Assembly (NCBI GenBank): GCA_036139835.1
Contig: JAYZYW010000012.1
Location: forward strand, 1 to 57,929
DNA: 57,929 nucleotides
Direction: 5' to 3'
Source: Bacteroidota bacterium
GTDB taxonomy: Bacteria; Bacteroidota; Bacteroidia; Flavobacteriales; BACL11
Under the pieces are notes generated by a model. That model was not told the DNA's origin. It did no database searches and saw only the letters and a list, made by a program, of their open reading frames with translations. Shown here one piece after another: positions 38,351-56,777 of the stretch. Position 1 is the stretch's first letter; each line of letters starts with the position of its first letter. A program made the position numbers and the translations under genes.

Positions 38351-38413
38351 ACTATCTTATTGAAGGAGTAGTCTCTTATTAATCACCTTGTAATATAAAA
38401 AAATAAATTATCA

Positions 38414-38602
38414 CTACTCCTTTTTACAACAAGACGAGTGACAGTAAGGACATCCCATTGCAGCAGCAATTAGAAAAAGGGCATAGACTCCAAGTGTTGG
38501 AATTGGTTCCAATCCATTTTGTGTAAAAGTGTGATACATCAAGCAGATAAAACCTGCTGCCCATGCAGCACAAAGCAATAAATAACACGTTTTTGATTTC
38601 AT
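38414..38602 (-). CDS. Small two-TM membrane protein with a Cys-rich C-terminus
   Basis: 62 aa with two hydrophobic helices, ending CPYCHSSCCKKE. It is preceded by copy B of the conserved element. Confidence 0.4.
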   Translation of the reverse strand: MKSKTCYLLLCAAWAAGFICLMYHTFTQNGLEPIPTLGVYALFLIAAAMGCPYCHSSCCKKE

Positions 38603-38631
38603 AATTAGAAATTTAATTGCAACAAAGTAAT

Positions 38632-38722
38632 AAAGTCGAGATGAGAGGATTACCCTCAGCCTCTTCTTACATGATTACAACAATTTATAAAGCTAAATTT
38701 TTCACCACTTTCTGCACCGCTA
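38632..38722. repeat. Copy B of the ~90-nt conserved intergenic element
   Basis: AAGTCGAGATGAGAGGATTACCCTC...CTAAATTTTTCACCACTTTCT aligns with 36767-36855. Confidence 0.7.
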
Positions 38723-39846: not shown

Positions 39847-39857
39847 TAAAAAATAAA

Positions 39858-39887
39858 GTCGGGATGAGAGGACGACAATTTACTAGA
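39858..39887. repeat. Copy C of the dispersed motif (AGTCGGGATGAGAGGACGACAATTTACTAG)
   Basis: Shares its core with copies A, B, E and F. Its extended tail CGAYAATTTACTA matches 55848-55877. Confidence 0.6.
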
Positions 39888-39976
39888 AATAAAACCTCTA
39901 ATTGTAAACCGTATTGTAAACTCTAGATTTCAAAGAATTAATGTTCAAAATATATAAAAGTTTTATACAATTGAGA

Positions 39977-40261
39977 TTATACACTAACCTTATCTTCAGC
40001 CCTATTAATTAAAATAGTTTCTGAAACAGGAGATCCCATGGACCAATATTTCCATCCATTAGCATAAAGATAGATGTAATATTGTCCATCTTTCCAGAGT
40101 TCTTTCATCCCATGTTTTCTAATATACAATACGGTATTCTCAAACTCAATGGGATTATCCCATTCTTTTTTTAAAGTATAATAATGGGGTATGTCAAGCA
40201 TAGTTTTAGCAAATCTATACTCCTTACTCTCTAATAACTGTATTATATCCACTCTCGCCAC
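39977..40261 (-). CDS. Hypothetical protein (94 aa), last gene of the island operon
   Basis: The ORF lies 4 nt downstream of the DUF4338-like gene. It contains PHYYTLKKEW...YWSMG...INRAE, and I cannot place the family. Confidence 0.5.
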   Translation of the reverse strand: MARVDIIQLLESKEYRFAKTMLDIPHYYTLKKEWDNPIEFENTVLYIRKHGMKELWKDGQYYIYLYANGWKYWSMGSPVSETILINRAEDKVSV

Positions 40262-40265
40262 CCTA

Positions 40266-42251
40266 TCAAAACTCTAAACTAGTTTGATTGGTTTTCTCTT
40301 TAATAACAACTCTTGAGATATGATTTATTGGGTAATATATATCGTGCTTTGAAACCTTGTCAATGATACTTTGGTTTTTTGTTCGCATTGAAAGCCAACG
40401 ACTAATCCAGTAATCAGAAATCAATTTTGTTATTTTTTTTCCGTTCTTAAGAGAAAAAGGATACTTAGGAACTTTTTCTAATCCTAACAAATAATCTCTA
40501 TAATTTACTGCTAAAGGAATAGCATAAATAATCCTTGGGTTTTTATGATTGAGTATTTGTGCAGCATCTAAATGTAGTTTATCAAGAGATGCTCTAAGAG
40601 CTCTTAATCTAGGGTTCGCTCCTTCACCAAAAATTGAATTCACTTTTCTAAGATTCAAACGAGTTAAATAAATATCCGACAATAATTTTGTTGTAGTACT
40701 TAAATGAAAGCTACCAAAGCCTTCTGTCTTACCAATTCTAATATATTTTATACAATTGTTTTTTCTTCTATTAGAAAAGATAGATGATGGAATTTTTATT
40801 CTATTGTATTGCGAAGCATTGTCACCATACAATGATGTAGTACCCAGAAAAACTAAATTACATTTAGGATATATAGCACAACCCTTCATTCCAGAGGCTA
40901 TCTTAGTTGCTCTTGATGCATACCTATTCTTGTATTCATTAATGATTTCAGGTGAACACAATAACATGGATACTAATTTTCCGCCCAATAATAACGAATA
41001 TGGACCTTGTACTGATCCACATGTAGATATATCCGCAATCTCATTACCTACCAATGAACCTTTATGTAATCGAATTAATTTACCGATTGCATTCTTAAAA
41101 CGATTCTGCTTACAAAGATCATTTATTGAAGAAGCATCTAAATTATTGTTAAAAAATGAATCGCAATCTTTTTTTATTGATAATAATAATTGTAACCTAT
41201 TTAACCTCTTGCTTAAGTATAAATTTGTAGTAGAGACATTTTCCCAATCTATGCTGTCAGATGCTAATAATTTTTTTATTTCACCTGGATTCATAATGTG
41301 TTTTTCTTTTGCCTCTAACGACAAGACTCTTAATCTTTGTATTATGACATCATTTGGCTTTTCTATATTAGATTTAGAAATTAATTTATTGTCAATCAAG
41401 TCATCAATCTTAATCGCGTCAAACTGTTTGTTAAACATACGAAACAGCCAATTAGATGTTTTCTTATTGGGATTTGCTATAATATACTCTATTATCTTTT
41501 CATTATTCCAGCCTATTAATTTCTCTCTTACTGATAATTGAGCCATTGCACTGTTTAATTCAAAAACCCCAATTACTGGATGATTCTCAACTGCAGCGTC
41601 TCTGACTAAAAATTTCATAGATCGACCAGGTATTGGCTTAGAAACGGAAGTCCAATTAAGTCTAAAATATTTCCAAATATCTAGTAATCTTAAACCAGTA
41701 AACTCGCATTTATCTTTTTCATTTACAACCTGAACATATGGCTGTATAATTTTTTTTAATTGCAGTATTCTCTGTTTTTCATTTTTAGTTCTTCTATTGA
41801 TATTATTTAACTCCTTAGCCATCTGCTGACCATCTCTGTATAGTGAGAATATAGAAACCCACTTATCCTTATAATATTTTTTACGATGTAGTTTTGAAAC
41901 AAAATTTTGAATAGTCTCTTTTGCCATAAAAGCATCTCTTTCGATGTTTTGCTTTGACATTACAATCTGTTTTGAGGGCTTGTCGTCCGAGAAAAACATA
42001 AACCCATTTTTGTAATTCCAATTCACTAATAGCAAATCAAGTGTTAAACTTTTGGTAAACATTAATTCAAGGGAAGCATCCGAAAGATCATTAGTAATGA
42101 TTAATTCTTTCTTGCAACTAACAAGAAATTCAACTCTATTTTCTTTTTTGATGCTTCTTGAAATTTTTTTAAAATACTTCTCGAAAAGATCTTTGTTCTC
42201 AGGGAATGTGAAAGTCGGATTATATGGGATTTTTTTTATCATATTAAGCAA
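40266..42251 (-). CDS. DUF4338 (Druantia DruA)-like protein, 661 aa
   Basis: GRSMKFLVRDAAVENHPVIGVFELNSAMAQLSVREKLIGWN resembles the DUF4338 core (G..lrYLV...lG.l.fs.aaw.l..RD.wIGW). A later LVFLGTTSLYGDNASQYNRI...IGKTEGFG resembles the family C-terminal block. This is recognised from memory, not computed. Its start overlaps the upstream GHKL gene by 8 nt. Confidence 0.55.
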   Translation of the reverse strand: MLNMIKKIPYNPTFTFPENKDLFEKYFKKISRSIKKENRVEFLVSCKKELIITNDLSDASLELMFTKSLTLDLLLVNWNYKNGFMFFSDDKPSKQIVMSKQNIERDAFMAKETIQNFVSKLHRKKYYKDKWVSIFSLYRDGQQMAKELNNINRRTKNEKQRILQLKKIIQPYVQVVNEKDKCEFTGLRLLDIWKYFRLNWTSVSKPIPGRSMKFLVRDAAVENHPVIGVFELNSAMAQLSVREKLIGWNNEKIIEYIIANPNKKTSNWLFRMFNKQFDAIKIDDLIDNKLISKSNIEKPNDVIIQRLRVLSLEAKEKHIMNPGEIKKLLASDSIDWENVSTTNLYLSKRLNRLQLLLSIKKDCDSFFNNNLDASSINDLCKQNRFKNAIGKLIRLHKGSLVGNEIADISTCGSVQGPYSLLLGGKLVSMLLCSPEIINEYKNRYASRATKIASGMKGCAIYPKCNLVFLGTTSLYGDNASQYNRIKIPSSIFSNRRKNNCIKYIRIGKTEGFGSFHLSTTTKLLSDIYLTRLNLRKVNSIFGEGANPRLRALRASLDKLHLDAAQILNHKNPRIIYAIPLAVNYRDYLLGLEKVPKYPFSLKNGKKITKLISDYWISRWLSMRTKNQSIIDKVSKHDIYYPINHISRVVIKEKTNQTSLEF

Positions 42252-43659
42252 AGTACAAAGCTAATATCTTAGAGAGATATTTCTGAAATTCTTTTTGTTT
42301 TTTTATGCTTAATACATTTCTTTCTGCCTCGATCAATGCAAATATAAATAATTCAACAAATACCCTTGCCTCATCATTTCTTACTTTTGTAAATACTTCT
42401 GAGTAAATAGGATGATGTTTATTTATAGTAATAACATCGCATCCTTCATTAGTCTCATATTCGTATAATATTTCTTTTGCCAGATAAGAAAATTTCAATT
42501 GCTTGTTTGAGCGTTTCTCATTAATTGAAACCAAACATTTTGAATTTTTCCCAATAAAGTTATCATTTTCATTTATTATCCTTTTAGTCTTACTAGAAGA
42601 CTCTGATCTTAGTGAGATAAACTTTTTAATAACTCTGGAGTATAAATCCCTACTTATTGACTGGAGATCATTATTCAAAATATTTGTAATATATTTGTTA
42701 GGGCTGATACCTTGTTTTGTATTTGTTACACCAAAGAACTGATCTAATACTGGCTCAAAAACAATTTCCATCCTCCACCAATAATCATAATTTTGATGTG
42801 GCTTTACAAAATAACTTCCCCTATCTATCTCTACATCAGATCTAATGATTGACACTCCTTTGTATGATGTTATAAGCATCTTCTTTTTTATTTTATTTGG
42901 AAGATAAGACCACTCTTGAATGGGTAATTCTACAAACCTCACAAGTATTTGAGAAATAGAATTAAAATGCGGCACTCTAACGTTATATTTAAGGGTCTTT
43001 CCATATTGTTTACCTCCTGTTGGGCTCCACCCCTTTTCCATAACATATAGAGGATCCCAATGCTGTATTCTTTCATTATTTAAATATAATCGAACACTAT
43101 CTCTAAATAGAAGGTATCTGTACCTAATTGCAAAGCACAATTTTAATTTTTTGATAAAAGCATTAAAATATTTTACATCAAGCCTGTCAACCTTGGTCAA
43201 CCTTACTAATGTTCCGTTTGAATCTAATTGCTTTTTTTTTGAAACTATACTTGAATCGAGTGCTAACTTTCCATTTTTTTGAATTTCATCATAATCTAAA
43301 TAGTTATAATACTCTTTACTCCCCTTTGCTCGTGTGTAAAATTCTATTCTACGAGCTAAAGATAAGCCAGCTTGCTTAAAGCCAACCCCATAACAGCCAA
43401 TACTATTCTTTTTATCTTTTTTTGTTGTTCCTCCAAATAAAAATGCACGATCTAACTCAGTTTGCAACATTCCAGATCCATCATCTTTAATCTCTATGCT
43501 AAATACATCATCTTGTTTTATAATAGTGATATGAATATTAAATGCAAGCGCATCAATTGCATTCTCAATAATTTCTGCAAGTGATGCGCAAGCATTTTTG
43601 TATCCTGATTGACGTTGAGCTCTTAAAAAATCTTTTGGATCTACAAGGTTTCGAGACAT
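42244..43659 (-). CDS. GHKL-superfamily ATPase, MORC/MutL-like (HATPase_c_3 type), copy 1
   Basis: Bergerat-fold motifs are AEIIENAIDA (N box), DDGSGM (G1) and GCYGVGFKQAG (G2). The downstream WWRMEIVFEPVLDQFFGVTNTKQGI block is shared with the 693-aa paralog. Confidence 0.85.
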   Translation of the reverse strand: MSRNLVDPKDFLRAQRQSGYKNACASLAEIIENAIDALAFNIHITIIKQDDVFSIEIKDDGSGMLQTELDRAFLFGGTTKKDKKNSIGCYGVGFKQAGLSLARRIEFYTRAKGSKEYYNYLDYDEIQKNGKLALDSSIVSKKKQLDSNGTLVRLTKVDRLDVKYFNAFIKKLKLCFAIRYRYLLFRDSVRLYLNNERIQHWDPLYVMEKGWSPTGGKQYGKTLKYNVRVPHFNSISQILVRFVELPIQEWSYLPNKIKKKMLITSYKGVSIIRSDVEIDRGSYFVKPHQNYDYWWRMEIVFEPVLDQFFGVTNTKQGISPNKYITNILNNDLQSISRDLYSRVIKKFISLRSESSSKTKRIINENDNFIGKNSKCLVSINEKRSNKQLKFSYLAKEILYEYETNEGCDVITINKHHPIYSEVFTKVRNDEARVFVELFIFALIEAERNVLSIKKQKEFQKYLSKILALYFA

Positions 43660-43662
43660 AAT

Positions 43663-44001
43663 CTAAGGTGTAAATATTTCAATATCGTAAATTAAAATAA
43701 AAACTCTCTTCTTTTTGTATGATTGGGTAGTGTCATCATCCCATGGGGCAGGAGACTCTTTAAGTGTTACGTCTAATTTATAAGGTTGGTGTTTTTTTAT
43801 CAAATACCCTTCATCTACCAGAAAAGTGTCTATCAAATATTTATTTTTTTGATAATCTTCTTTATTCCTCACAATCTCCCAATCAATACAAATACAATAT
43901 ATTCCCTTACCTTGACTCATATAAAAAACTCCTTCTTTCAGTTCATTGAGCGTTTTAAAAGTAATTGGATCTTTTAATCTTTTAGATAATCTATTTTTCA
44001 T
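43663..44001 (-). CDS. Hypothetical protein (112 aa)
   Basis: The ORF overlaps the upstream gene by 11 nt and ends 3 nt before the GHKL start. No motif recognised. Confidence 0.5.
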   Translation of the reverse strand: MKNRLSKRLKDPITFKTLNELKEGVFYMSQGKGIYCICIDWEIVRNKEDYQKNKYLIDTFLVDEGYLIKKHQPYKLDVTLKESPAPWDDDTTQSYKKKRVFILIYDIEIFTP

Positions 44002-45208
44002 CTTCTTTAATATTTATTTGGTTTATAGAATTCACTTTGGCTTGATGGAGTGCAATGGTTTTTACAGCTTCATTCTTTGTGGTCTCTTCATCAAGATCAA
44101 TTAACTCATTTGATTTCTGATTAGCAGGATTAATCTTCTGTCCCAACTCCATTTCTGTCGCTTGCTGCAATATATCTTCAGGAAGTAGGTGGATATTGTC
44201 CTTAAGAAAATTTAAAAGCCAATCATTAAAGAAAGTATTAACTTGAACAGTTCTTTTTCCAAAACTCATTAAACCGCTAACCACTCTTGCAATACCTTCA
44301 CTATCTTCTGGACCTAGGGTTTCGAAACACTCATAAATCTCTCTTTGTTTTAGGCTTAATAAAATCGTTTCAAGGGAGTCTAGTGTTATTACATGAACAG
44401 TATAGCTAGAATCACGATAAACTTTCTCTTTGATAACCTCGGCAGTATTCGATGGAATTACAAGATACAGATGTTTATGTACCGATTTATATTTTCCGTA
44501 TTTTCCAATGCTTGAAACCTGATTTTTAATGTATGTTGGAAAATTATCAAGGTTATCATTATATGGTGCCTTTGCATCAAAAATTACATAATCATTAACT
44601 ATTTGTATCGTGTTGTCAGGAGATTTACCTTCAAATGGAAAAGAATCTATATAAGCAATTCCATGTAAATCACATAAGTGCTTAATTACTGTCTGAACCA
44701 AATCCTGATGACTCTTCCAGGTTTTTCTTTTTTCCTCCCATGCATCACTCCTTGCTTGCTCCTGCTCATTAATTCTTCTTTGGATATCATCATTTAATTT
44801 TTGCTGAGTTGCATCTAATTGATTAATAGAATTTTTATGCTCCAAATTACGAGAATTCTCTTTTTGCTCATACTTATTTACAATTTCTTGTAATTCTTTG
44901 TTGGTTTGAGCTAAGGGAGTTAAATGATTAATACGTTCCTGAAAAATCTTATTATCACTTTTTAGAGATCTAATTTCTTCATTACAGTGATCAACATTAT
45001 TTTGTTTGATAGTAAGTGTTTCTTGAAGATTTGAATTCTCTACTAGCAATCTTTCATTAATCTGCATTGCATCATATACAATTGCCTTTATTTCAGAGAG
45101 TAAAATTAAGATTGATTGCCAATTAAAAAGCCTTGTTATCCAAGATGAATTAATTACTGATTCAATCTTTTCTTTAAATACGAATGGTTTTTCCAATATT
45201 GTTTTCAT
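43991..45208 (-). CDS. RmuC-like coiled-coil protein with a putative PD-(D/E)xK nuclease core
   Basis: The N-terminal ~170 aa are heptad-rich (LQETLTIKQNN...EEIRSLKSDNKIFQERINHL...). The C-terminal PDNTIQIVNDYVIFDAKAP resembles the RmuC (R)PD...vviDAK motif. Confidence 0.6.
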   Translation of the reverse strand: MKTILEKPFVFKEKIESVINSSWITRLFNWQSILILLSEIKAIVYDAMQINERLLVENSNLQETLTIKQNNVDHCNEEIRSLKSDNKIFQERINHLTPLAQTNKELQEIVNKYEQKENSRNLEHKNSINQLDATQQKLNDDIQRRINEQEQARSDAWEEKRKTWKSHQDLVQTVIKHLCDLHGIAYIDSFPFEGKSPDNTIQIVNDYVIFDAKAPYNDNLDNFPTYIKNQVSSIGKYGKYKSVHKHLYLVIPSNTAEVIKEKVYRDSSYTVHVITLDSLETILLSLKQREIYECFETLGPEDSEGIARVVSGLMSFGKRTVQVNTFFNDWLLNFLKDNIHLLPEDILQQATEMELGQKINPANQKSNELIDLDEETTKNEAVKTIALHQAKVNSINQINIKEDEK

Positions 45209-45210
45209 TA

Positions 45211-45522
45211 TTATAGTTTTAAATTATTAGTTTCAGTTTTCTCTAAGTGATATGCGATGCCAATTGTTACAAAATCAGTTAGCATTTCAAATTTTACATC
45301 AAGCGAAGCCTCTGGAAATTGAAAAATCATAAATTGTCTCATCTTTTCAAATTTCTCTTTGATTCCATTAGAGTAATGATATGGGCGCTCGGAAAGCATT
45401 TTGAGAGCTAAATACTCATACTTGTCCTGCCCAATTTCTGAAGGACATGATGGTGTTTTTTGGACTTGTTCTTTTTCCTTCTTTAGCTGTTTTTTAGTTT
45501 TAAATCCTATTTTTTGTGTCAT
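45211..45522 (-). CDS. Hypothetical protein (103 aa)
   Basis: The ORF lies 12 nt after the DUF932-like gene and 2 nt before the RmuC-like start. No motif recognised. Confidence 0.5.
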   Translation of the reverse strand: MTQKIGFKTKKQLKKEKEQVQKTPSCPSEIGQDKYEYLALKMLSERPYHYSNGIKEKFEKMRQFMIFQFPEASLDVKFEMLTDFVTIGIAYHLEKTETNNLKL

Positions 45523-45534
45523 TGTATTGTGTTT

Positions 45535-46644
45535 TTAGTTATTAATTAATGCGGGAAATGGGCTAGGCACCTTATTTGCCATATCATAATCTCCATAAAA
45601 GAGTTCTCCTGACTGACTTTGTAGTTTATGCCCCTGAGCATCTGTTATTTGATTATTATGAGAAGCGAAATCAGTAATCACATTAATCAACTCCCAAACA
45701 CTCATTGGAGATTCAGCATTTCGCTTTTCTTTAGCACTTAACTTATACATATTAATCCCCAATTTCTTATACTCAGTCTCAGCATGATTGATTGGTAAAT
45801 ATTCATTCACTGAATGCTTGTTCACTACTGAAGTGTTTAAAAGCAAATGTCTGGCCCTCATCATTTCATGAATCGAAGCTCGTGTATTTACTGCACTGAA
45901 CACGTGTTTATCAAATGATTGGGGCTTGAAGTTTCTACTTTCTAAAGCCTCAACTACATCAAGGAAATTATTGTAAGTCGTATGGTTTAGATCCTTCATT
46001 TGACAACTTTCCTCTAGTTTATTTGCAATCATTCCATTGGTACAAATTAATCGACCTAAATAGGTTGATAGTTGCACTCCACTATTAATAGAGTTAGTCA
46101 AACTAATCCCAGAGATAAAATCCTCGCCTGCAATACCATTTACAGACCAGTAATTCTCTGGAAGTAAGGTGTTGATATTTACATTCCCAGAGTCATCGAC
46201 CGACATTTCATTTACCTCTAAATTATTTCGGTTTATAATGTTTTCGGCAAGATCCAAGAAACTTACATTAGATATTAAATCATGCTTACGTTTTTTAAAA
46301 CCAATAACATGTTTGTTTTTTGGATTCACAAGCATCAGTAAAGTCATTGTAGAGTTATTAGCAGTTTCGTTTCTAAACCACTCAACAAATTTTATTTTCT
46401 GTTTAGCTGAAGAGTAATTTTCAATTTGACTCAACATACCCCTGCTAAGACCAAGTAATTGAAATAGGTCCTTCTTGGCATTCTCGTCTAATTGTAATCT
46501 TTTACCTTTATATTCGATAAAAGAGTCATTCTTCATTTCAATGTCGGTAAGTTTAACTGGCCTTGAAATGGGTTGAGCTTTAATTGCAACATTCTTTGTT
46601 TTTTCATATTCTGTTGCTGCAAGTACTTCAAAATTATTTGTCAT
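45535..46644 (-). CDS. DUF932-like (phage/plasmid-associated) protein
   Basis: About 370 aa, with a GRLICTNGM motif resembling the conserved (v/l)C.NG block of DUF932. The size fits. Tentative. Confidence 0.55.
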   Translation of the reverse strand: MTNNFEVLAATEYEKTKNVAIKAQPISRPVKLTDIEMKNDSFIEYKGKRLQLDENAKKDLFQLLGLSRGMLSQIENYSSAKQKIKFVEWFRNETANNSTMTLLMLVNPKNKHVIGFKKRKHDLISNVSFLDLAENIINRNNLEVNEMSVDDSGNVNINTLLPENYWSVNGIAGEDFISGISLTNSINSGVQLSTYLGRLICTNGMIANKLEESCQMKDLNHTTYNNFLDVVEALESRNFKPQSFDKHVFSAVNTRASIHEMMRARHLLLNTSVVNKHSVNEYLPINHAETEYKKLGINMYKLSAKEKRNAESPMSVWELINVITDFASHNNQITDAQGHKLQSQSGELFYGDYDMANKVPSPFPALINN

Positions 46645-46660
46645 TTTAATTAATTTTATG

Positions 46661-46681
46661 AGGGGCTCTTAAGCCCCCTCT
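46661..46681 (-). terminator. GC-rich intercistronic hairpin (GAGGGGC-TCTTAA-GCCCC(C)TC)
   Basis: A 7-bp stem with one bulge lies between the RadA-bL12 stop (46692) and the DUF932-like start (46644). There is no clear U-tract on the minus strand, so its function (terminator, attenuator or processing site) is unresolved. Confidence 0.35.
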
Positions 46682-46691
46682 GGTTATTATT

Positions 46692-47801
46692 TTAGTTAAT
46701 GTAGTCTGTTAGGAAAGAAGTTGATCCATAGAATTGTCTTAATTCTACTTCAGCACCTAATTTTTCAAGTTCGGTTTTCAAAGCTTCTGCTTCATCTTTA
46801 GCCACACCTTCTTTTACTGCTTTTGGTGCACTATCAACTATGTCTTTGGCTTCTTTTAGTCCTAATCCAGTAAATTCTTTTACAAGTTTAACTACTGCAA
46901 GTTTAGAACCACCAGCAACTGCTAATATAACATCAAATTCTCCTGCTTTCTTACTAGTAGTGTCAACGACCTCAAGTATTTCAGAATCTTGTGTCGAAGA
47001 GTCAGAGATCCAATCATCAAAAGTTTCCACTGCTTGAGATGAAACAGAAGTGTTTTTCTCGACAGTTTTCTCTAAAGACTGTTGCCTCCCATTTAACTTG
47101 GTATCAAAAATGAGTTTTCCTTCATTAGAAAAATTAAAGTACAGTGGCTTGTCTGTTTCTCCTTTTCTGTTTTTTATTGCAGTTATATAGCGACTGCAAT
47201 TATTACCCTCTCCTTTAACAATTCGAAACATGCCAGTAAGCATATGTTCAATACGCTTATTTCCTTTATAGTTTCCGCCTTTGGTAATTTGAAAAACAAT
47301 AAAGAAACTGGTAAACTTCCCTTTTTTGTTATCTCCTTTCTTGTGCTTAGTAAATAGTTGTAGTAAATATTTCTCCACAACATATCTTTTTTCATTATTC
47401 TGAATCATAATAGATTCCATTAGTTCATTAATAGAGTCTATAGTAACAACATCCCATCCAAGAGCCAATTTTTCTTCTATTTCTTTTTTGGGATTTTTTG
47501 AATTAAGAAGATCCAAATAAACTACTTCTCCCATCTCAATTCTAGTGCTATACTCCTCTATATCAGGCTCTTCCATTTCGCACTGTATGTTTAATACACG
47601 TAGAGATGTTTTTGCAATTTTACCTGATATGTAAAATGCAACGCTTGACTTTCCGCTTCCAGCATCACCATATATACCATATGATGTTGCGGGCGTTAAC
47701 CCTCCCTTGTAAGATAGAAGGTCATCAAATTTTGTGTTACTTAAAATAGGCACCTGTAATTTTTTAGGCGACTTAATGTTTTTTACTTTCTTTAGTTTCA
47801 T
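46692..47801 (-). CDS. RadA/Sms-like RecA-fold ATPase fused to a ribosomal protein bL12 (L7/L12) C-terminal domain
   Basis: The N-terminal domain has [21 protein letters not shown] (Walker A), VVTIDSI, and [22 protein letters not shown]...[10 protein letters not shown], which matches the RadA pattern (hvTKeG..aGp..LEH.vD......KNRfG). C-terminal residues 288-354 read [67 protein letters not shown]. This aligns nearly position for position with the E. coli RplL CTD ([67 protein letters not shown]). Confidence 0.85.
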
Positions 47802-47849
47802 AATTATTATTATTTTGATTAATAAATAGGGTTACATAGTCCACCTATC

Positions 47850-47875
47850 CCGGGGGATCTATCAGGGGCCCCCGG
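47850..47875 (-). terminator. GC-rich hairpin/palindrome (CCGGGGG-N12-CCCCCGG, containing GGGGCCCC)
   Basis: It lies between the 99-aa gene stop (47895) and the RadA-bL12 start (47801). It stands out as a short GC-rich stretch (23 of the 29 nt at 47847-47875 are G or C) in a locally AT-rich spacer. Confidence 0.3.
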
Positions 47876-47894
47876 TTTGGTGAACTAATGATAT

Positions 47895-48194
47895 TTAAGC
47901 TATTTGTTCCGCTAAATATCTTTGCTCTAGATAGCTAGAATTTTTCCATCCATCGATAAAAAAAAGGTATTGTGTAGCATTGAACCAAGTTTCCTCTTCT
48001 GTTTTTGGAATTGGCATAAGATGTTGTGTAGAAATATCTTTTCCATCCAAAAAAATTCTTGGCGAACCTTTAATATATACTAGTTTAGCTTTTGGAAAAT
48101 CTGTCAGCACTGTGTTTTTGTACTGGCTTAATTTTGATGCTTTTTTGCATCTTTTTTGTGAGGGCTTTACTTCCTCCATCATTAATTGTTTCAT
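47895..48194 (-). CDS. Hypothetical protein (99 aa)
   Basis: The first ORF after the 454-bp spacer. No motif recognised. Confidence 0.45.
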   Translation of the reverse strand: MKQLMMEEVKPSQKRCKKASKLSQYKNTVLTDFPKAKLVYIKGSPRIFLDGKDISTQHLMPIPKTEEETWFNATQYLFFIDGWKNSSYLEQRYLAEQIA

Positions 48195-48430
48195 TGTCTT
48201 AATTTTTAAATTAATATTATGTTAATGGAGGTTAATCAAAAACGGTTATTTTTCTTCTTGTCCCATCTCTACAAAGTAGAAATTAATGGTTCCAAGCCAA
48301 TCCTGGTAACCTCCTTAATTTTTGTTTGTTCAATTATTCTTTCTAAATAAGAGATGGCTGGTCTCCTGGATGAATAATTTAAGTCAACATGTAATTAATA
48401 ACATTGCATAAATGCACTTGTTTATATACG

Positions 48431-48446
48431 CCAAATTTTAATTTGG
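48431..48446. promoter_or_regulatory. Perfect 16-bp palindrome CCAAATTTTAATTTGG, a candidate operator, with the half-site TTAATTTGG repeated at 48466-48474
   Basis: It lies in the 454-bp non-coding gap upstream of the 99-aa/RadA-bL12 genes. A related palindrome, CCAAATTTGG, lies at 51600-51609 upstream of the GHKL-PLD pair. Confidence 0.3.
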
Positions 48447-48648
48447 TTAATGTTACTTTTTTACTTTAATTTGGGAAAATTGAATGCTTTTTCGTGTAGT
48501 ATTTCAATTATTCCTTGTTATTTGCCCACTATGAAATACAGGGAGTGTGTTAGACAAAAGGTAATTTCAGTAATTTTTTTAAGCATTTGAAAGAACTAAC
48601 TCTATTTATTTGACTAAACTAATTGAAAATAGTTTAATCGGTTCATAT

Positions 48649-49485
48649 TTAAGCAGCAGTTTTTAACAATTTTTTTGACAATTGCTGCGTATATGGTGTT
48701 TGGCATGAGGGGCATGCAAAATGCTCAATAAAATGCATCTGAAACCATGCCCCAACCAACAATTCATTACAGTTTTCACATTTAACTTTAATACAAATCG
48801 GATTTGAATTTAAAAACCAAATATGCCGATAGTTATTTAACAATAAGTTTTCTTTTGATGAATACAATTCTTTTATTTTAAACTTCTTAAATCGAAATGG
48901 ATGCCAAGAAAAATCTGTAATCCATTCTGATGATTTATATTCTTTTGCAACCCACAATGGATTATATATGTAGGGCTTGTATTTTGACAAGCCTAATCTG
49001 TGCTTTATTAATGGGGTTAAAAACTGATTCTCTACTGTTACCCCATTATTTACTATTTGTACACATGCAATGTCTTTTAAGTATTCAAACTCCTCTATAA
49101 ACGGTGAAATCACTTCTGATTTTACGTTTTCTAAGATTATTGTATTCTCAAAATTTCTCTCAGCATTATAGGTCCAGTTGTAACTACCAGTAATAAGCGT
49201 TTCTCTATCAATCACACAAAATTTATTATGCATTAAAGAAGAAGTTGTAGTTACATAGATCTTACACCCTAATTCCGAAAGATAATCAAAATATTGCATG
49301 TTAATGGATGCATTTTTATCTACAATCACTTCCACATCAATACCAGCAAAGGCTTTGTTGGCAAGTAATTTTAATATGTCTGCATTTGTAAAATAACACA
49401 TTGCTATTCTGATGGAATTTTTAGCACATAACAACTCATTGTAAAGTCTTGTACTAATATTATAGAAATAACTATTAATCTTCAT
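48649..49485 (-). CDS. PLD-superfamily (single HKD) nuclease-like protein with a C-terminal Cys4 zinc-ribbon
   Basis: LMHNKFCVIDRETLITGSYNWT is an HxK(x)4D...GSxN HKD motif. The C-terminal CENC...CPSC motif suggests a zinc ribbon. Its start overlaps the upstream GHKL gene by 11 nt. Confidence 0.85.
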   Translation of the reverse strand: MKINSYFYNISTRLYNELLCAKNSIRIAMCYFTNADILKLLANKAFAGIDVEVIVDKNASINMQYFDYLSELGCKIYVTTTSSLMHNKFCVIDRETLITGSYNWTYNAERNFENTIILENVKSEVISPFIEEFEYLKDIACVQIVNNGVTVENQFLTPLIKHRLGLSKYKPYIYNPLWVAKEYKSSEWITDFSWHPFRFKKFKIKELYSSKENLLLNNYRHIWFLNSNPICIKVKCENCNELLVGAWFQMHFIEHFACPSCQTPYTQQLSKKLLKTAA

Positions 49486-51556
49486 CAGGTGCAGTATTAG
49501 TAATATTATTCATTCCATATTTTCTAGCTAATCGCTCATAATTGATACTACTATATTCAGATATCGTTGCAATTCTTTGTCTCATTTCCATTGCAGGTAT
49601 TGTTCCAGATTTAGACAATAACTGCCCCCAGGAAATAAATAAAATATCAAGTATATCAGTAGTCATATCGCCTACTCCCTCATTAATATAAAATTCTTTT
49701 ATTAAGGGATGATCTGTATTGTATATTACCTTACATCTGCCAGGAGCGATAAGTTCTGCATCAAAAATTGGTGCCGTTGTCCCTCTGGATTCTAAAGCAG
49801 TAATAAAAGGCCTTTTTTTAATATCTCTCTCCAACTCATTTACTGCTTCTGCAATGAGTTCTTTTGTTTTAGGGCTCAAATTATCTTCCTCTAAATCATC
49901 TAAATCAATTTTTTTCTTTTCTAAAATAGATGCAACCTCTTTTTTCGCATTTTCTACTCCAATTAGTAGTACATCTTCACTCCAAGTTTCTGGCGACCAG
50001 TGCTTACTATGTTTTTTAGTTACCTGTTCTGCTTTAGAAGATTCCTTTTCTCGTTTTTTAATTACCTTTTCTAATGTTTGTTCACGTAACAAGTCTCTTG
50101 ATTTATTGTCAAGTTGTCTAAGAAACTGTGGAATACCTTTGTCAGATAAAAGATCCCATATTTTCTTGTTTAGTGTAATTTGTTGTTTATTTACTGTAAG
50201 TCCAAAATATTCGTCTAGTATAGGATCAAAATCTATCTCCATTCTCCAATAACGAGATTGATTTTGTAAAACCATATTATTCTTTTTATTTTCAAAGCTA
50301 GTTCTTGTTACTTCATCAATTTGTCTATTTTTTCTCGTAATAATAGCATATTGATATTTTTTTAATGTGGTCCACCTTCCTTTCATTGGCATACCATCAG
50401 CATCGAAATCGTCAGATTGATCACCCGGCATAGCCGAAAGATTCTTATTTTTTGGATCCCAAAGACGAACAAACTTTGGATGATAAAAAGCAAACCTTAT
50501 GGTAATATTTCCCCATTCCCCTTGGCTATTTTTGATTTGGAATTTAGAGGATTCATATCTCTTGGCAATAATTCCCATATCAAAAAGTTTCTTTCTTCCT
50601 TCTGTAGTAGGTTCAAAAGGAAACCCTTCTTTTGTTCCATCATGTTTAATCAGTTTTTTATCATACTCTTCAGTAAATTTATCATTAAGTCCCCGTTTAT
50701 GGTGTAAAAATGCTTCTGGCTCTAAGAATAATGGATCTTTTGGTGCTATAATAACATTGTTGACTTTGATAGTTATTTTCTTAAAGATAGCTGATCGGTA
50801 AGTTTCTGATAAATTATCAATAATGGAACTATGAAAATTTTGTGGTGTTGAATAGCCCCAAGTCAAACCACCATATTTTTTTGGAAATTTTACATGTACA
50901 ATGGTTCCTGATGTTAAGGTTGAAATCTTTTGTTTTTCATATAGGTATTCTTGTACCTTTTTAGGAATATCTTTTTTTTCTGGTTCTGGCACCATCACCA
51001 TACCTGTTTCTTTATGAACTAAATTACCATCTTCTTTCTCTAATTCCTTTTTGTTGATAGAAATTGAATACCAATCGGTTTTACTGTTCTTTGAATACAC
51101 CTCGTATTCTTCACTTAAAAATAATGCTGAACTTGGTAATCCAAAACCATACTTCCCCAGAAAGTTTCCTTTTTTCAAATGACGATGCGTCCCACCCCAC
51201 ATAACAGCTGTTTTCAATACATCTTTAGACATGCCGGTACCACTATCGATCACAAATATATCAGTGATCTCGTTGCTTTGTGGACGGGTATAGTAATAGA
51301 TGAAGATTTGGTCAGCACCGGATTCTATCGAATTATCAACCATTTCATTTATGGCCGAACCGGTTGATTTGTATCCACTATCTCGAATACTTCCTAGAAA
51401 TTGCTGCGTAGCTACTAATGGCAACCCCTTTCTGTGAAGATTGTTTAAGTGTTTTGCATAATCTTCTTGAAGTTGTGAATTGGTTTTCTGATTTACAGAA
51501 TCCAGTATTAGATTCTTCGCTACTTCTTTCTTTTCTTTTAATTGTTTTTTTGTCAT
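49475..51556 (-). CDS. GHKL-superfamily ATPase, MORC/MutL-like (HATPase_c_3 type), copy 2 (693 aa)
   Basis: Motifs are NEMVDNSIESGA (N box), DSGTGM (G1) and GKYGFGLPSS (G2). YWRMEIDFDPILDEYFGLTVNKQQI is shared with the 471-aa paralog. Confidence 0.85.
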   Translation of the reverse strand: MTKKQLKEKKEVAKNLILDSVNQKTNSQLQEDYAKHLNNLHRKGLPLVATQQFLGSIRDSGYKSTGSAINEMVDNSIESGADQIFIYYYTRPQSNEITDIFVIDSGTGMSKDVLKTAVMWGGTHRHLKKGNFLGKYGFGLPSSALFLSEEYEVYSKNSKTDWYSISINKKELEKEDGNLVHKETGMVMVPEPEKKDIPKKVQEYLYEKQKISTLTSGTIVHVKFPKKYGGLTWGYSTPQNFHSSIIDNLSETYRSAIFKKITIKVNNVIIAPKDPLFLEPEAFLHHKRGLNDKFTEEYDKKLIKHDGTKEGFPFEPTTEGRKKLFDMGIIAKRYESSKFQIKNSQGEWGNITIRFAFYHPKFVRLWDPKNKNLSAMPGDQSDDFDADGMPMKGRWTTLKKYQYAIITRKNRQIDEVTRTSFENKKNNMVLQNQSRYWRMEIDFDPILDEYFGLTVNKQQITLNKKIWDLLSDKGIPQFLRQLDNKSRDLLREQTLEKVIKKREKESSKAEQVTKKHSKHWSPETWSEDVLLIGVENAKKEVASILEKKKIDLDDLEEDNLSPKTKELIAEAVNELERDIKKRPFITALESRGTTAPIFDAELIAPGRCKVIYNTDHPLIKEFYINEGVGDMTTDILDILFISWGQLLSKSGTIPAMEMRQRIATISEYSSINYERLARKYGMNNITNTAPDED

Positions 51557-51560
51557 AACG

Positions 51561-51749
51561 TTATTTTAATAATTTATTAAAAATAAAATCACCTATCATC
51601 CAAATTTGGAAAATAGGAGAAAGCAAAACAGAATATGCTGTATAATCTTTACTGATAAAATTTTGGATTTGGAATCCCGAGTTTATGATTTTTTTCACTT
51701 TAAAATGATACATAATAAATTGCCGCTTTGACCAATTTATCATGCTCAT
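51561..51749 (-). CDS. Doubtful small ORF (62 aa)
   Basis: It ends 4 nt before the GHKL-2 start, which is suggestive. However, its composition looks like AT-rich spacer and there is no homology evidence. Confidence 0.2.
   Translation of the reverse strand: MSMINWSKRQFIMYHFKVKKIINSGFQIQNFISKDYTAYSVLLSPIFQIWMIGDFIFNKLLK
51600..51609. promoter_or_regulatory. Palindrome CCAAATTTGG about 45 nt upstream of the GHKL-2 start
   Basis: A perfect 10-bp palindrome with the same half-site as the 48431-48446 palindrome. Confidence 0.25.
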
Positions 51750-51891
51750 CTTAGTTGTTAGATCTTCAGGATTTTCCTGTTAAAGACCCCTGATAAACTG
51801 GGTTTTTTGCACTGCAAACATACAAAAAAAAAATGAGACTACAAAATAATTTGGTGTATTTCTTACCTAAAAAATGACTTTGCTAGGTTAA

Positions 51892-54039
51892 TTAAGTGCG
51901 TGAAAATAAAGTGGTTGTTAATTCTTGTTGTGCAACTAAAATTGGCCACCAAAATGCCTCTCCTTGCCACCCTAAATCACTTTTTCCATTTTGTCTTAGT
52001 AGAATTAATGTTGGGGTTTTCATTCCATGTTTTCTTGCCAATTGTAATTCGCTTTTTGACCCAGCAGCAGTATCAGGAACATCTTCAAATCTTCCGTCAA
52101 ATCTTTTTCTACTTATATTTCTGTTAGTTCGAACAATGAGGTTTATATAATTTGTATCCTTATCTTGTTTTATTAAATGCTTTGCAAGACTTTTCATCTC
52201 ACTTAATGGTAACTGGTAATGATCCTCAAAAAGCAAACCTTCCCAAATATTATCCATAATACTACAAAACTCTGTATAGGATATTTTTATTATTGTAGAT
52301 AAATCCTGTTGATATGGGTTGTATAATAAATGTAGAATATGATCTACACGCATTGTAATTTTTTTCTGTATAGATTGTGTTTGTGTGTTAAACCCGATTG
52401 GCAAGATACGTCTGCCAGCAGTAATAGTATGAACATCTGATAATAGCAGTTTATTAGGAGAGCAAGGGATTACGCCTTCCAATTCCCTTTGTATAAAATT
52501 AATGGGACAATTTGGGCCATTTTTTTCAATCGATTCCCACAATGCATTTTCAATTCTGTGCATACTTTCTAAAACACGGTATATCCCCAAACTTGTATAC
52601 ATTCTTGTTATTGCCATATCATTAATTGGTCTTGGACCGAAACATCTTAAATGCTGTAAAACTGTATCCATTTGAAATCTTCTTGGCGATCTTCCATACC
52701 AAAAAGCAATCAAATTTTCTACACTTATTCCTCTATCTAAAATTGTACCACCCACAAAAATCATAAAGGGAGAGGAAAGTTCTAATTGTCCTGTTGCTTC
52801 ATCCATTAAGGCCTCTGTATCAGTATCAGAATTAACTGTCTGCACACAGATATAACCATCAACTAGAGCGCTTTTCACACTTTCCAACACCTTCTTAAAT
52901 GAAGGCATTTTAGTATCTGATAATTTGTTTATTGAATATTTAAAATAATCGTAATAAACTTTTATTAGTTCAGCAAATGATTTAGAGTCTAACTGTAATA
53001 AAGAAGAGTAATTTCTAAGACAGCAAGCAACTATATCTGCTTGCCAATCGTGTCTAACCTTCTGTGTTTCGGTGTGTACAACAAAAGAATATTTTTTTGG
53101 TGTTACCTTTTGTTCTTTGTCTTGGATTCTTCGGATTGAACCCCCCACTATAAAATTTAATAATGCATCCCATAACCCATCAACTCCATGAATTCGAATA
53201 TTTGGATTTAATCTAATACTTCTAGGCGTTCGTAAAACTCTTAATTCATCATTTGTTATCTCCTCAAATATGTCGTGAAAAATGGATTCGCTTTCATTAC
53301 TTGGCAGATTAAAGAATTCATCTCCTCCTATGTATTTATCGTGTTTGGGAACAAGATGCGTAAATACTGGTCTTGTTGGTGCCAATAATTGCCCATTTAT
53401 TTCCTGATATCCATCAGGCTGTAAATAAAGAGAGTAAGGAGTAGCTGTTACTAACAGAAAATCCGAGTCAGTGAGTAATTTTCTGAAAGAACTGATTTGC
53501 CCCATAATTGTTCCTACTTGTATTTCTCCACTATTTCTTCTAAAACTAAGACCGCAAAAATCAGCTTCATCATCAATAATTAAAGTTTTACTTTTTTTTA
53601 GGCGATCGTGATTACGGTATGTTCTAATTAATCTGTTAAGATTGTCATCTTCTTTCTTTACACAAAAAATAAGTTTTTTATTTTGCTGATATCCAGAAAG
53701 CACATTTACTTTCATTATATCAAGAACTTCTACTAAGTCATCTTCAACAAATTCTTTAAATTCAGACCTCAATCTTTTATATGTTTGGCTCAAAAGGAAC
53801 TTTGTTCCTTTAGTTAACACAACTATTGACTCAAAACCATTATCTAATGCTAATGCAATTATACCACAGTATGCAAATGTTTTTCCAGCTTGCACTCTAC
53901 CCAGTAACATTCCTGGCTTTCTAGGTGAGGTTTGATTTGAAAGAAGATCTTCAACAGTACCCTCAATACATTTCGTAAGAGCAGTAGTATAATTTTCTTT
54001 CTGCTTTTTATATAAGTAAAATTTTCCGGTTTTTTTCAT
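51892..54039 (-). CDS. Z1-domain protein (SF2 helicase-like P-loop NTPase)
   Basis: Motifs are GRVQAGKT (Walker A), LIIDDEAD (Walker B/DEAD-like) and VTATP (motif III). The C-terminal FVGGTILDRGISVENLIAFWYGRSPRRFQMDTVLQHLRCFGPR matches the Z1 block (L.RGlT.eGL.vsYf.R.......DTL.Q..RWFGYR). Confidence 0.8.
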   Translation of the reverse strand: MKKTGKFYLYKKQKENYTTALTKCIEGTVEDLLSNQTSPRKPGMLLGRVQAGKTFAYCGIIALALDNGFESIVVLTKGTKFLLSQTYKRLRSEFKEFVEDDLVEVLDIMKVNVLSGYQQNKKLIFCVKKEDDNLNRLIRTYRNHDRLKKSKTLIIDDEADFCGLSFRRNSGEIQVGTIMGQISSFRKLLTDSDFLLVTATPYSLYLQPDGYQEINGQLLAPTRPVFTHLVPKHDKYIGGDEFFNLPSNESESIFHDIFEEITNDELRVLRTPRSIRLNPNIRIHGVDGLWDALLNFIVGGSIRRIQDKEQKVTPKKYSFVVHTETQKVRHDWQADIVACCLRNYSSLLQLDSKSFAELIKVYYDYFKYSINKLSDTKMPSFKKVLESVKSALVDGYICVQTVNSDTDTEALMDEATGQLELSSPFMIFVGGTILDRGISVENLIAFWYGRSPRRFQMDTVLQHLRCFGPRPINDMAITRMYTSLGIYRVLESMHRIENALWESIEKNGPNCPINFIQRELEGVIPCSPNKLLLSDVHTITAGRRILPIGFNTQTQSIQKKITMRVDHILHLLYNPYQQDLSTIIKISYTEFCSIMDNIWEGLLFEDHYQLPLSEMKSLAKHLIKQDKDTNYINLIVRTNRNISRKRFDGRFEDVPDTAAGSKSELQLARKHGMKTPTLILLRQNGKSDLGWQGEAFWWPILVAQQELTTTLFSRT

Positions 54040-54090
54040 CGAGAAAAATTATTGAATTTTCTGTCTATTCAATTATCTTCATAAAATAAT

Positions 54091-55017
54091 TTAGTCATCA
54101 GCAAAAAAAATCAGATTCCCATCTGTTTTATAATTAAATTCTGTATTGAATATGCCAAGAAAAGATAAAATAGTAGGGGATAAGTCTGCTTGACTGCTTA
54201 TATAATCTTCCTTATAAGAAATACTTGGATGTTCAGATAATAATATAGTCTTTTTAATATGAGGGTTATTATTATCGCTATGAGATGTTCCATCACCTCC
54301 ATGATCAGAAACTATAAAGATCATCCAGTCTTCTCCTTCATGTCTTTTTTCTTGTATCATACCAAATAAGTTCTGTACATAAGAATCTAGTATTGAAAGT
54401 TTATTTACATATTCTGGAACAGATGAACTAAATCCATAACTATGTCCAGCTCCATCAAGTTCATCAAATTGCAAGAACAAAACATCTGGAGATATAGGGT
54501 CTGATTCTACTAATAGTTTTTTTACAGATAAAAAAACTAAAGAGTCATTGGGTTCAGAATTAGAATAATCTACATGAGAAGATAATATGTGTGTATTTAT
54601 AGGTTCCCAATTAACAATAGAAGCAGTATTTATACTCTGCTGTATATCTTCTATATATCTAAAGAATGGAGGGAAGTGAAGGTAATTAGGATCACTAAAA
54701 CTATTATCAACTATATTATGTTTGTTATAATGAACTCCTGTCAATATACTAGACCAATTTGGTCCACTTACAGTATAATGCTCAACAATATGAGATGAAT
54801 TATAATAAATATTCTTTCCATGAAACATACTATGCATAAAAGGAGTAGATTCAGGTAATAATACATCACTCCTAAATCCATCTATACCGATTATAAGAAC
54901 TTTCCTGTCTATTTTTGTAGAATCTATAGTAGTTTCGCCATATTGCTCATATGTCTGAGAGTCTTTATTACAACTAATAAATATCAAAGGAATAAATAGA
55001 AAGAATAGTTTTTTCAT
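54091..55017 (-). CDS. Nucleotide pyrophosphatase/phosphodiesterase (alkaline-phosphatase superfamily) lipoprotein
   Basis: The signal peptide ends in FISC. IGIDGFRSD, DELDGAGHSYG and SDHGG are metal-ligand motifs of the NPP family. Confidence 0.8.
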   Translation of the reverse strand: MKKLFFLFIPLIFISCNKDSQTYEQYGETTIDSTKIDRKVLIIGIDGFRSDVLLPESTPFMHSMFHGKNIYYNSSHIVEHYTVSGPNWSSILTGVHYNKHNIVDNSFSDPNYLHFPPFFRYIEDIQQSINTASIVNWEPINTHILSSHVDYSNSEPNDSLVFLSVKKLLVESDPISPDVLFLQFDELDGAGHSYGFSSSVPEYVNKLSILDSYVQNLFGMIQEKRHEGEDWMIFIVSDHGGDGTSHSDNNNPHIKKTILLSEHPSISYKEDYISSQADLSPTILSFLGIFNTEFNYKTDGNLIFFADD

Positions 55018-55038
55018 TGAAACAAAAGTAGAAAAAAA

Positions 55039-55057
55039 GTCGGGAAGAGAGGATTAC
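55039..55057. repeat. Copy E of the dispersed motif (GTCGGGAAGAGAGGATTAC)
   Basis: It lies 22 nt upstream of the minus-strand NPP start and is preceded on the plus strand by CAAAAGTAGAAAAAAA, as in copy F. Confidence 0.6.
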
Positions 55058-55188: not shown

Positions 55189-55761
55189 TTATTTAATACT
55201 TTTTAAAATATTATCAATCTTTGGTTTTACAAACCAACTATTATTAGAATTTCCTAATCTTTGATCTATATTATTATTTATAATGGTATTTTTAGAACAA
55301 TGTACTGTTTGGGTTACCGAATAAGATATTGATATCGGGATACCCATTTCTAACCATGATGTATCCATATTCATATCATAGATAGTAATTGAAAGACTTG
55401 TTTTAGTAAATGAACAGGGTATTGAAAATGTCGTGTCCTCATCTGTAATTGTTAACATATTGTTTGAATAAACATAATCAAGGGTATCTCCATCAACAAA
55501 CATGTTTCCATTATTAGTAAACTGAAGATTTCCTTCAATACCAGCATCATATGGAGTCATAGTAACAGTTCCTGATCCTGACATTGAGTCAACAACCATT
55601 CCCATCATTGTTACAGTAAGTGATGTGTCAAGATCTACAGAAGTAGGTGTCCAAATACCGACAATTGTTGGAGAAGATGGCGGATTATTTTCTTCTTCTT
55701 CTTTCTTGCATGCTGCAAAAACGATTGATAAAGCTAAAAATGTATAAATTAATTTTCTCAT
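55189..55761 (-). CDS. Hypothetical lipoprotein (lipocalin-like size)
   Basis: The signal peptide ends in FAAC. No catalytic motif recognised. Confidence 0.5.
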   Translation of the reverse strand: MRKLIYTFLALSIVFAACKKEEEENNPPSSPTIVGIWTPTSVDLDTSLTVTMMGMVVDSMSGSGTVTMTPYDAGIEGNLQFTNNGNMFVDGDTLDYVYSNNMLTITDEDTTFSIPCSFTKTSLSITIYDMNMDTSWLEMGIPISISYSVTQTVHCSKNTIINNNIDQRLGNSNNSWFVKPKIDNILKSIK

Positions 55762-55811
55762 GAGTTATTTCTTTTAGATTATTAAGGCTGCGAATATAAA
55801 AAAATAACTAA

Positions 55812-56113: not shown

Positions 56114-56210
56114 AATATTTTTTTAATGTAAGTAAACTTACAAAAAATATTAAGACTATAAAGAAAAAATGCGGAAAAGGAACCATTAAGAATGATTCCC
56201 CTAATAAATC

Positions 56211-56651: not shown

Positions 56652-56777
56652 AACAAATAAAGTATTGATTAACAAACAAATATATAAATTATTTTATAAC
56701 TCATATCTAATTTATAATATATAACGGATATACTTTTGGGTGTAAAAAACACAATAGTAGTAATAGTTTTTTCATTG

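Follow-up and report, generated by a model that had tools for sequence, protein, structure and literature searches.

This analysis concerns a block of accessory genes at positions 39,977 to 54,039 of contig JAYZYW010000012.1, which was analysed over its full length of 57,929 nucleotides (nt; hereafter the window) and which derives from a marine Flavobacteriales population with a GC content of 32%. At least a dozen studies have yielded seawater metagenomes containing DNA near-identical to that of the window. The block is bordered by phhB (Pterin_4a), which ends at 39846, and by a minus-strand open reading frame (ORF) for an NPP/phosphodiesterase (54091-55017), whose nearest genome relatives are metagenome-assembled genomes of Flavobacteriales (43-55% identity). 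Counting ORFs of at least 90 amino acids (aa), 12 lie between these two genes, all of them on the minus strand (Table 1). An initial annotation had given the same borders and strand but had counted 13 genes; the sole further minus-strand ORF codes for 62 aa and sits within the 335-nt gap. Five of the 12 genes, encoding a Z1-type helicase, a long and a short GHKL ATPase, a PLD nuclease and a long-form DruA, appear from their domains and gene order to belong to one conserved system rather than being independent NTPases and nucleases, and six further ORFs (43663-48194) are nested among them.

Table 1. Features of the block and of its left border
Feature	Coordinates	Strand	Remarks
17-21-nt motif AAGTCGGGATGAGAGGA, copies	36766-36782, 38633-38649, 39856-39872, 55037-55053, 57258-57274	plus	
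21-nt motif AATAAAGTCGGGATGAGAGGA	39852..39872	plus	6 nt past the phhB stop; last conserved sequence before the variable region
Terminal small ORF, 94 aa	39977..40261	minus	no detectable family
Long-form DruA, 661 aa (DUF4338, GNAT-like C-terminal domain)	40266..42251	minus	PADLOC DruA1 2.2e-130; Pfam DruA 2.1e-27
Short GHKL ATPase, 471 aa	42244..43659	minus	Pfam HATPase_c_3 1.9e-21
Small ORF, 112 aa	43663..44001	minus	no detectable family; stop codon 3 nt from the short GHKL start
Coiled coil (aa 23-181, ~160 residues) with C-terminal PD-(D/E)xK nuclease domain (i05)	43991..45208	minus	405 aa
Small ORF, 103 aa	45211..45522	minus	no detectable family
Divergent DUF932-like protein, 369 aa (i07)	45535..46644	minus	rare family
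RecA/KaiC/Sak4-like ATPase (aa 1-~250) with ribosomal bL12 C-terminal domain (aa 289-354) (i08)	46692..47801	minus	KaiC 4.9e-6; TIGR sms 3.8e-12
Hairpin	47837-47887	minus	-28.2 kcal/mol, z -2.8; between the 99-aa ORF and the RecA-like gene
Small ORF, 99 aa	47895..48194	minus	no detectable family; GC-rich hairpin 47837-47887 downstream
Non-coding gap, 454 nt	48195..48648		holds hairpin 48288-48311; upstream boundary of the nested module
Hairpin	48288-48311		within the 454-nt gap; -14.2 kcal/mol, z -2.8
PLD/HKD nuclease, 278 aa	48649..49485	minus	Pfam PLDc_2 1.4e-25; NucT-like and DrmC-like matches
Long GHKL (paraMORC-like) ATPase, 693 aa	49475..51556	minus	Pfam HATPase_c_3 4.8e-17
Non-coding gap, 335 nt	51557..51891		sigma-70-like gene of 207-222 aa at this position in related loci
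Z1-type superfamily 2 helicase, 715 aa	51892..54039	minus	Pfam Z1 3.8e-22; PADLOC Helicase_II 4.4e-53

The catalytic motifs (Walker, DEAD, N-box, DxGxG, HxK) are intact in the Z1 helicase, both GHKL ATPases, the PLD nuclease and the nested RecA-like ATPase. The helicase, which scores 79.4 bits with Pfam Z1 against a cut-off of 25, carries a Walker A motif (GRVQAGKT) and a DEAD motif (IIDDEADF), and its Z1 C-terminal domain contains the signature DTVLQHLRCFG. The long GHKL ATPase retains its N-box and DxGxG motif and its gene overlaps by 11 nt that of the PLD nuclease, a protein with HxKxxxxD and GSxN motifs and a Cys4 region at its C-terminus. There is also an overlap of 8 nt between the short GHKL gene and druA. 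The product of the latter reaches 96.5 bits with PF14236 (cut-off 27) and has 2139 homologues at E<=1e-10; a GNAT-like fold has been assigned to DUF4338 (PMC10853773). The initial family calls of Z1, two GHKL ATPases, PLD and a RecA/RadA-like ATPase all correspond to real Pfam or NCBIfam matches, with DruA and a ribosomal L12 domain having been overlooked.

The arrangement of these five genes is not confined to the window. The best DruA homologue with gene context lies in an unrelated locus, on a 53-kb JGI metagenome contig (L100), where the order is Z1, a 210-aa gene, long GHKL, PLD, a 77-aa gene, short GHKL and DruA. The order and orientation of the five core genes are thus those of the window, the PLD gene lying between the two GHKL genes in both, with amino acid identities of 45% for Z1 (full length), 26% for the long GHKL, 40% for PLD, 35% for the short GHKL and 42% for DruA. 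The same gene order at 26-45% identity is hard to ascribe to chance clustering. Among nine independent long-DruA contexts looked at, the short GHKL gene (homologues at 32-36% identity) is directly upstream of druA in all nine, with varying partners. L108, L109 and L116 carry, further upstream, a gene for a sigma-70-like protein together with a long GHKL gene, and on a Roseivivax plasmid (L105) two long-GHKL-like genes precede the pair, so that with L100 there are five loci in which a long GHKL homologue co-occurs with the short GHKL-DruA pair at a matching relative position. Downstream of the pair, L103 and L115 have genes of the size of DruB, DruC and DruD and a DEAD/MZB helicase of 1,800-2,000 aa; these two loci (L103 8433-21523, L115 8011-21758) are canonical Druantia type I systems (DruA-DruE) in which DruA is directly preceded by an additional gene for a GHKL ATPase. 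As the short GHKL gene stays constant beside DruA and the partners alternate, the short-GHKL/DruA pair behaves as a constant module. The 94-aa terminal ORF was not seen beside DruA in any other locus looked at. Defence genes neighbouring the homologous loci include Card1, SIR2, nSTAND, KAP, HipA and Druantia, and other DruA loci adjoin TraG/TraI, ArdC, a resolvase or an integrase. On plasmids, Z1 occurs in triplets with a Dcm methyltransferase and a PLD restriction endonuclease.

The nested six genes include three with recognisable domains. The ATPase domain of the first of these (46692..47801) has as its closest relative a protein (P0012, 37% identity) on a phage-like contig of 96 kb, and its PHROGs matches include Sak4-like. 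At nt 46740-46937 it carries a ribosomal L12 domain (Pfam Ribosomal_L12, PF00542, 3.4e-26, 91.8 bits). TIGR00855 is matched at model positions 51-124 only; the bL12 N-terminal domain (PF16320) is not present, the N-terminus being the RecA-like ATPase, and the protein is not a complete bL12. The junction between ATPase and L12 domain is spanned by a 100%-identical contig from an unrelated study, and contigs of runs X8 and X4 skip 279 nt net, in frame, which removes exactly the L12 domain. At the DNA level, the L12 segment is matched at 80-92% identity by the rplL genes of many abundant bacteria. Combinations of an L12 C-terminal domain with a TIR domain exist in database proteins P0021, P0023, P0041 and P0054, and for this reason the L12 domain may have been used repeatedly in conflict-system proteins.

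The DUF932-like label given initially to the neighbouring gene product holds at sub-threshold level only (17.5 bits against a cut-off of 23 for PF06067); weak DUF932 matches are found in five of six members of its family, the best at 4.7e-4. Just five homologues were found, mostly on phage-like contigs, with contexts in L110, L114 and the 484-kb huge phage LR756508. Homologues of the RecA-like and DUF932-like proteins are adjacent in L114 and both families are present in the same huge phage.

The third protein, the coiled-coil nuclease, had been called RmuC-like. Pfam RmuC gives no match to it at E<=10, nor to 45 members of its family at E<=0.01, and the label is therefore right only as an architectural analogy, the combination of coiled coil and PD-(D/E)xK domain resembling RmuC in architecture only. 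Alignment of the family shows invariant residues P197-D198 and D211-A212-K213. An AlphaFold (AF2) model built with a 45-sequence alignment has a predicted local distance difference test score (pLDDT) of 83.7 (a single-sequence model with a pLDDT of 56.5 was set aside), and its top Foldseek matches are McrC, FokI, BspD6I and Hjc, all of them weak (E-values of 0.005-0.07). The family comprises 288 representative clusters and is absent from the IMG/VR, phage and plasmid collections searched; scans of viral contigs with the DUF932-like protein, the coiled-coil nuclease and the profile of its family gave no matches. No flanking repeats were found around the nested module. We read it as a second cassette that the operon acquired by capture, with a defensive role or a phage origin; it may also be an accessory of the DruA system. 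Its RecA-like ATPase and DUF932-like protein, as a putative phage-type pair, point to a partly phage-derived origin.

The two non-coding gaps and the two GC-rich hairpins reported initially are all present, with exactly the lengths given for the gaps, and the division into four transcription units that was predicted from them is plausible. The larger hairpin (CCGGGGGCCCC...CCCCCGGG), which has no directly following U-tract, is one of only two 20-nt stretches with a GC content of at least 75% in this 58-kb contig of 32% GC. No remnant of a sigma-like gene is detectable in the 335-nt gap, and an Rfam search of the gaps returned no family match and one chance miRNA match.

The block is accessory. 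A metagenome scan with phhB yielded 80 loci, 12 of which have a phhB at 82-93% amino acid identity, and most of these 12 keep DUF2237 and/or DCC1 beside it. Eight of the 12 extend at least 400 nt past phhB; none of them (0/8) carries any island gene or the NPP gene, and the content there differs. The contigs of the relatives diverge from the window at 39857-39971. In the closest (L025), with a DUF2237 protein 99% identical at the amino acid level, phhB is followed by the 21-nt motif, a 96-aa membrane protein, a second copy of the motif and an aldehyde dehydrogenase. The left flank is matched at 85-92% identity by Logan contigs of runs X8, X9 and X23, with a depth of 3-27 that falls to about 0-1 over 40156-54099 except at the L12 segment; in runs X1-X3 the depth of the island equals that of its flanks. 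The comparison of synteny proposed in the initial annotation thus shows a block that is not conserved downstream of phhB in relatives. Logan contig joints that skip the island were considered as evidence of an empty site and were rejected, because most have sides of only 20-40 nt on repeated promoter or signal-peptide motifs. Exact-sequence look-ups with NPP and phhB gave no match, and a scan of genome contigs with NPP, finding relatives of at most 55% identity without shared synteny, is uninformative on presence or absence.

The right flank (NPP, lipoproteins) is not syntenic in relatives, so the variable region probably reaches beyond 54039. A 190-aa lipoprotein gene in this flank (55189-55762) is found at 99% identity on a 1,238-nt contig of run X9 with unlike sequence on both sides, which suggests that it is also a mobile or variable cassette. 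Further to the right, at 56167-56638, a 63-nt unit is present in six tandem copies, with 62-100% identity to a reference copy; they sit inside a 154-aa ORF (56211-56675) in a region of variable cell-surface genes. On the left, the 388-nt "gap" between the amine oxidase gene and DUF2237 contains a conserved small ORF of ~70 aa (38402-38611, minus strand), of which a copy at 80% DNA identity lies directly after phhB in relative L023 (737-974, approximate), suggesting that this small cassette moves between slots.

The composition of the block was compared with that of its host as the initial annotation had proposed. Its GC content (0.316 vs 0.324) and tetranucleotide distance are host-like, the latter lying within the host range. 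Codon usage is borderline, with a distance of 0.422 for the core genes, just above the host 95th percentile of 0.412, and a nested module within the null; taken together these values neither support nor refute transfer. The 12 island proteins and 28 other ORFs scanned, which include transketolase, sucC, pyrC, an aminotransferase, 3-hydroxyacyl-CoA dehydrogenase and a TonB receptor, contain no integrase, transposase, relaxase, capsid or phage structural domain, and there is neither a tRNA gene nor a link to a conjugative element in the contig. In these respects the picture first drawn, of accessory DNA of the defence-island type with no visible means of acquisition, is supported.

The initial statement that there is no flanking direct repeat needs to be amended. 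At the immediate borders of the block only AT-rich chance matches occur as direct repeats, but the 21-nt motif is found at both 39852-39872 and 55033-55053, a pair which brackets the island together with the NPP gene. The motif is multi-copy and not att-like: as AAWAAAGTCGGGATGAGAGGA it has five plus-strand copies between 36.7 and 57.3 kb, where 0.03 are expected. Four of them lie 20-60 nt upstream of minus-strand gene starts, by a TAnnTTTG-like box, and one is placed directly past phhB, where relatives start to diverge. Similarity between the copies at 36766 and 38633 extends over ~80 nt. The motif is kept after phhB in L025, with two copies in the same arrangement. We read it as promoter-associated rather than as an attachment (att) site, and it may be a promoter element of a regulon. 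Recombination through conserved flanks, rather than an integrase of its own, probably brought the block in; the most economical route that we infer is replacement by homologous recombination, the site downstream of phhB being a hypervariable slot.

Several known systems resemble the block in part. Druantia type I shares with it the long-form DruA and, in L103 and L115, the short-GHKL/DruA pair located directly upstream of DruB-E-like genes. However, none of the 12 proteins matches DruE (a YprA-like helicase with DUF1998/MZB), the sole helicase being of the Z1 type, and DruB, DruC and DruD are likewise absent, with only the 94-aa ORF, which has no PADLOC match, following DruA. Their place is taken in the window by Z1, PLD and a second GHKL ATPase. 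The published DruABCDE definition has no GHKL partner as far as the literature searched shows, and a literature search on Druantia with GHKL, MORC, HATPase or MutL-like proteins returned no description of a GHKL partner of DruA.

A second likeness is to predicted restriction-modification-like operons in which a nuclease and a MORC/paraMORC GHKL ATPase accompany a superfamily II helicase, often joined by a cytosine methylase (Iyer, Abhiman & Aravind 2008; PMC2292703). These have a helicase whose C-terminal domain shows DThhQXuRhFG, to which DTVLQHLRCFG in the window conforms, and a GHKL ATPase in the neighbourhood, as with HATPase_c_3 in the 693-aa and 471-aa proteins; the predicted logic of clamping or looping, unwinding and cleavage would be common to both. 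Unlike these operons, in which a methyltransferase is frequent and not universal, the island encodes no methyltransferase in any of its proteins and no Vsr, has a PLD/HKD nuclease instead of one with a restriction endonuclease fold, and possesses two GHKL paralogues and DruA. The plasmid Dcm + PLD + Z1 systems of Mucilaginibacter (NZ_CP155082) and Psychrobacter (NC_021668) also have Z1 adjoining a PLD nuclease, but they include a C5 methyltransferase and lack GHKL and DruA, with Z1 identity at ~24%. Mza (MzaABCDE) has in common a GHKL/MutL-like ATPase and a Z1-domain protein; its NCBIfam models are matched far below threshold (MzaB 24.8 bits vs 850, MzaC 47.5 vs 1500) and there is no MzaA, MzaD or MzaE. 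Lastly, the paraMORC3-type Shedu protein VcSduA has a GHKL ATPase that controls its nuclease and is experimentally anti-phage, both activities being needed (PMC12137116); it is a single-polypeptide GHKL-DUF4263 fusion, whereas the window has a separate PLD protein and further components. The system is related to Druantia type I and to the paraMORC/Z1 systems and is a member of neither as now defined. No paper was found in the literature on the Z1 domain with GHKL and defence, and as far as the literature searched shows the combination of DruA/GHKL, Z1, a paraMORC-like ATPase and PLD is undescribed.

On balance, and with restrained confidence, the block is best explained as an accessory locus against phages, with one conserved multi-gene system at its centre. 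We infer a defence function and the following roles solely from the domains present and the conserved gene context. The core pair of short GHKL ATPase and long-form DruA would sense or mark, and may replace the cytosine methyltransferase that is usual with Z1 and PLD restriction modules. The long GHKL protein would act as an ATP-driven DNA clamp, the Z1 helicase would translocate on, or unwind, the invading DNA, and the PLD nuclease would cut it. A number of points weigh against this explanation. Besides the window, L100 is the sole locus found to have the full five-gene arrangement, which in the window is split by 4.98 kb and is missing the sigma-like gene of other loci; Z1 is set apart by the 335-nt gap and so could be an independent unit. 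A component for self/non-self discrimination, such as a methyltransferase, was not identified among the island proteins, and the role given to DruA is a predicted one. The host-like composition fits long residence or a donor of similar GC content and gives no positive sign of transfer, and no RNA runs with transcript evidence for the locus were found.

The alternative that the block brings together two or three independent systems in a common defence hotspot, namely a restriction-like Z1/paraMORC/PLD unit devoid of a methylase, a GHKL-DruA pair orphaned from Druantia type I by the loss of DruB-E, and an unrelated phage-derived cassette, is considered rather doubtful, though a substantial share of the probability falls to it. 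It would account for the two gaps and the two hairpins separating the units, for the GHKL-DruA pair being without Z1 or PLD in most loci and for plasmid Z1 and PLD genes without GHKL or DruA, and defence genes cluster anyway. What it does not readily accommodate is the preservation of all five genes in L100 in one order despite their divergence, the repeated co-occurrence of the long GHKL with the short GHKL-DruA pair (L105, L108, L109, L116 and L100) and the position of PLD between both GHKL genes in L100 and the window. An origin of the block, or of its central six genes, as the decayed remnant of an integrated mobile element that has lost its integrase (a phage satellite, a cryptic prophage or the cargo of an integrative and conjugative element), with the RecA-like, DUF932-like and nuclease proteins forming a recombination or replication module, is improbable. 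The closest relatives of the RecA-like domain and the DUF932-like protein, in phage-like contigs and in the 484-kb phage, their adjacency in L114, the Sak4-like PHROGs match and the transfer and integration genes beside other DruA loci speak for such an origin. Neither set of boundaries, however, shows an integrase, capsid, terminase, relaxase, tRNA or att-like repeat, the coiled-coil nuclease family is missing from the viral, phage and plasmid collections searched, and every ORF is intact and closely spaced with the GHKL-DruA genes.

Very little probability is given to a housekeeping role in DNA repair or chromosome organisation (MutL/MORC-like ATPases, helicase, nucleases, RecA-like). Repair paralogues do exist for GHKL+S5 ATPases, helicases, PLD and PD-(D/E)xK nucleases and RecA-like ATPases, and the composition is host-like, but the block is absent from close relatives, the homologous loci lie among defence genes and mobile elements, and NCBIfam scores are far from those of the repair proteins (MutL 26 vs a cut-off of 180, RadA 46 vs 403). 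It is also scarcely credible that the whole contig is a circular extrachromosomal replicon of 57.8 kb, on which the block would be plasmid cargo needing no integration machinery. The contig begins and ends with an identical stretch of 141 nt (1-141, 57789-57929), which is an assembler signature of a circular path, and a single ORF for a surface protein of ~1100 aa of the type IX secretion system type reads across the end junction. This junction lies, however, inside a unitig of ~760 nt at 4-5x the depth of unique sequence, into which other sequences branch; chromosomal housekeeping genes, among them sucC, pyrC, transketolase and 3-hydroxyacyl-CoA dehydrogenase, are present on the contig, the ORFs scanned include no replication, partition or transfer genes, and the synteny DUF2237-DCC1-phhB is common to many metagenome contigs. 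As the junction is in a high-depth repeat and core metabolic genes are on the contig, the circle is judged to be false.

Beyond the reading of the block as one accessory anti-phage locus, a bolder proposal is put forward tentatively, as a possibility that is probably incorrect in at least some part. The short-GHKL/DruA pair would be a portable sensing or marking module with interchangeable effectors, either DruB-E or the long GHKL with or without Z1 and with or without PLD, and the window would hold an undescribed, DruE-less relative of Druantia with a GNAT-like protein in the place of the methyltransferase. In addition, the RecA-like ATPase would recently have captured an L12 factor-binding domain, linking the locus to translation GTPases (EF-Tu, EF-G, IF2), a link also suggested by the L12-TIR fusions seen elsewhere.

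Of the components of Druantia type I, which is among the broadest-acting defence systems known, DruA is the one least understood. If GHKL-DruA is self-contained and works with differing helicase and nuclease effectors, it would provide a simpler system for studying DruA, and the locus opens the question of whether DruA could substitute for DNA methylation in self-recognition. A ribosomal L12 domain appears to have been recruited into a conflict-system protein that exists in nature in alleles with the domain and in others lacking it. For marine flavobacteria, the locus indicates that large defence systems can be kept in hypervariable slots that are free of integrases.

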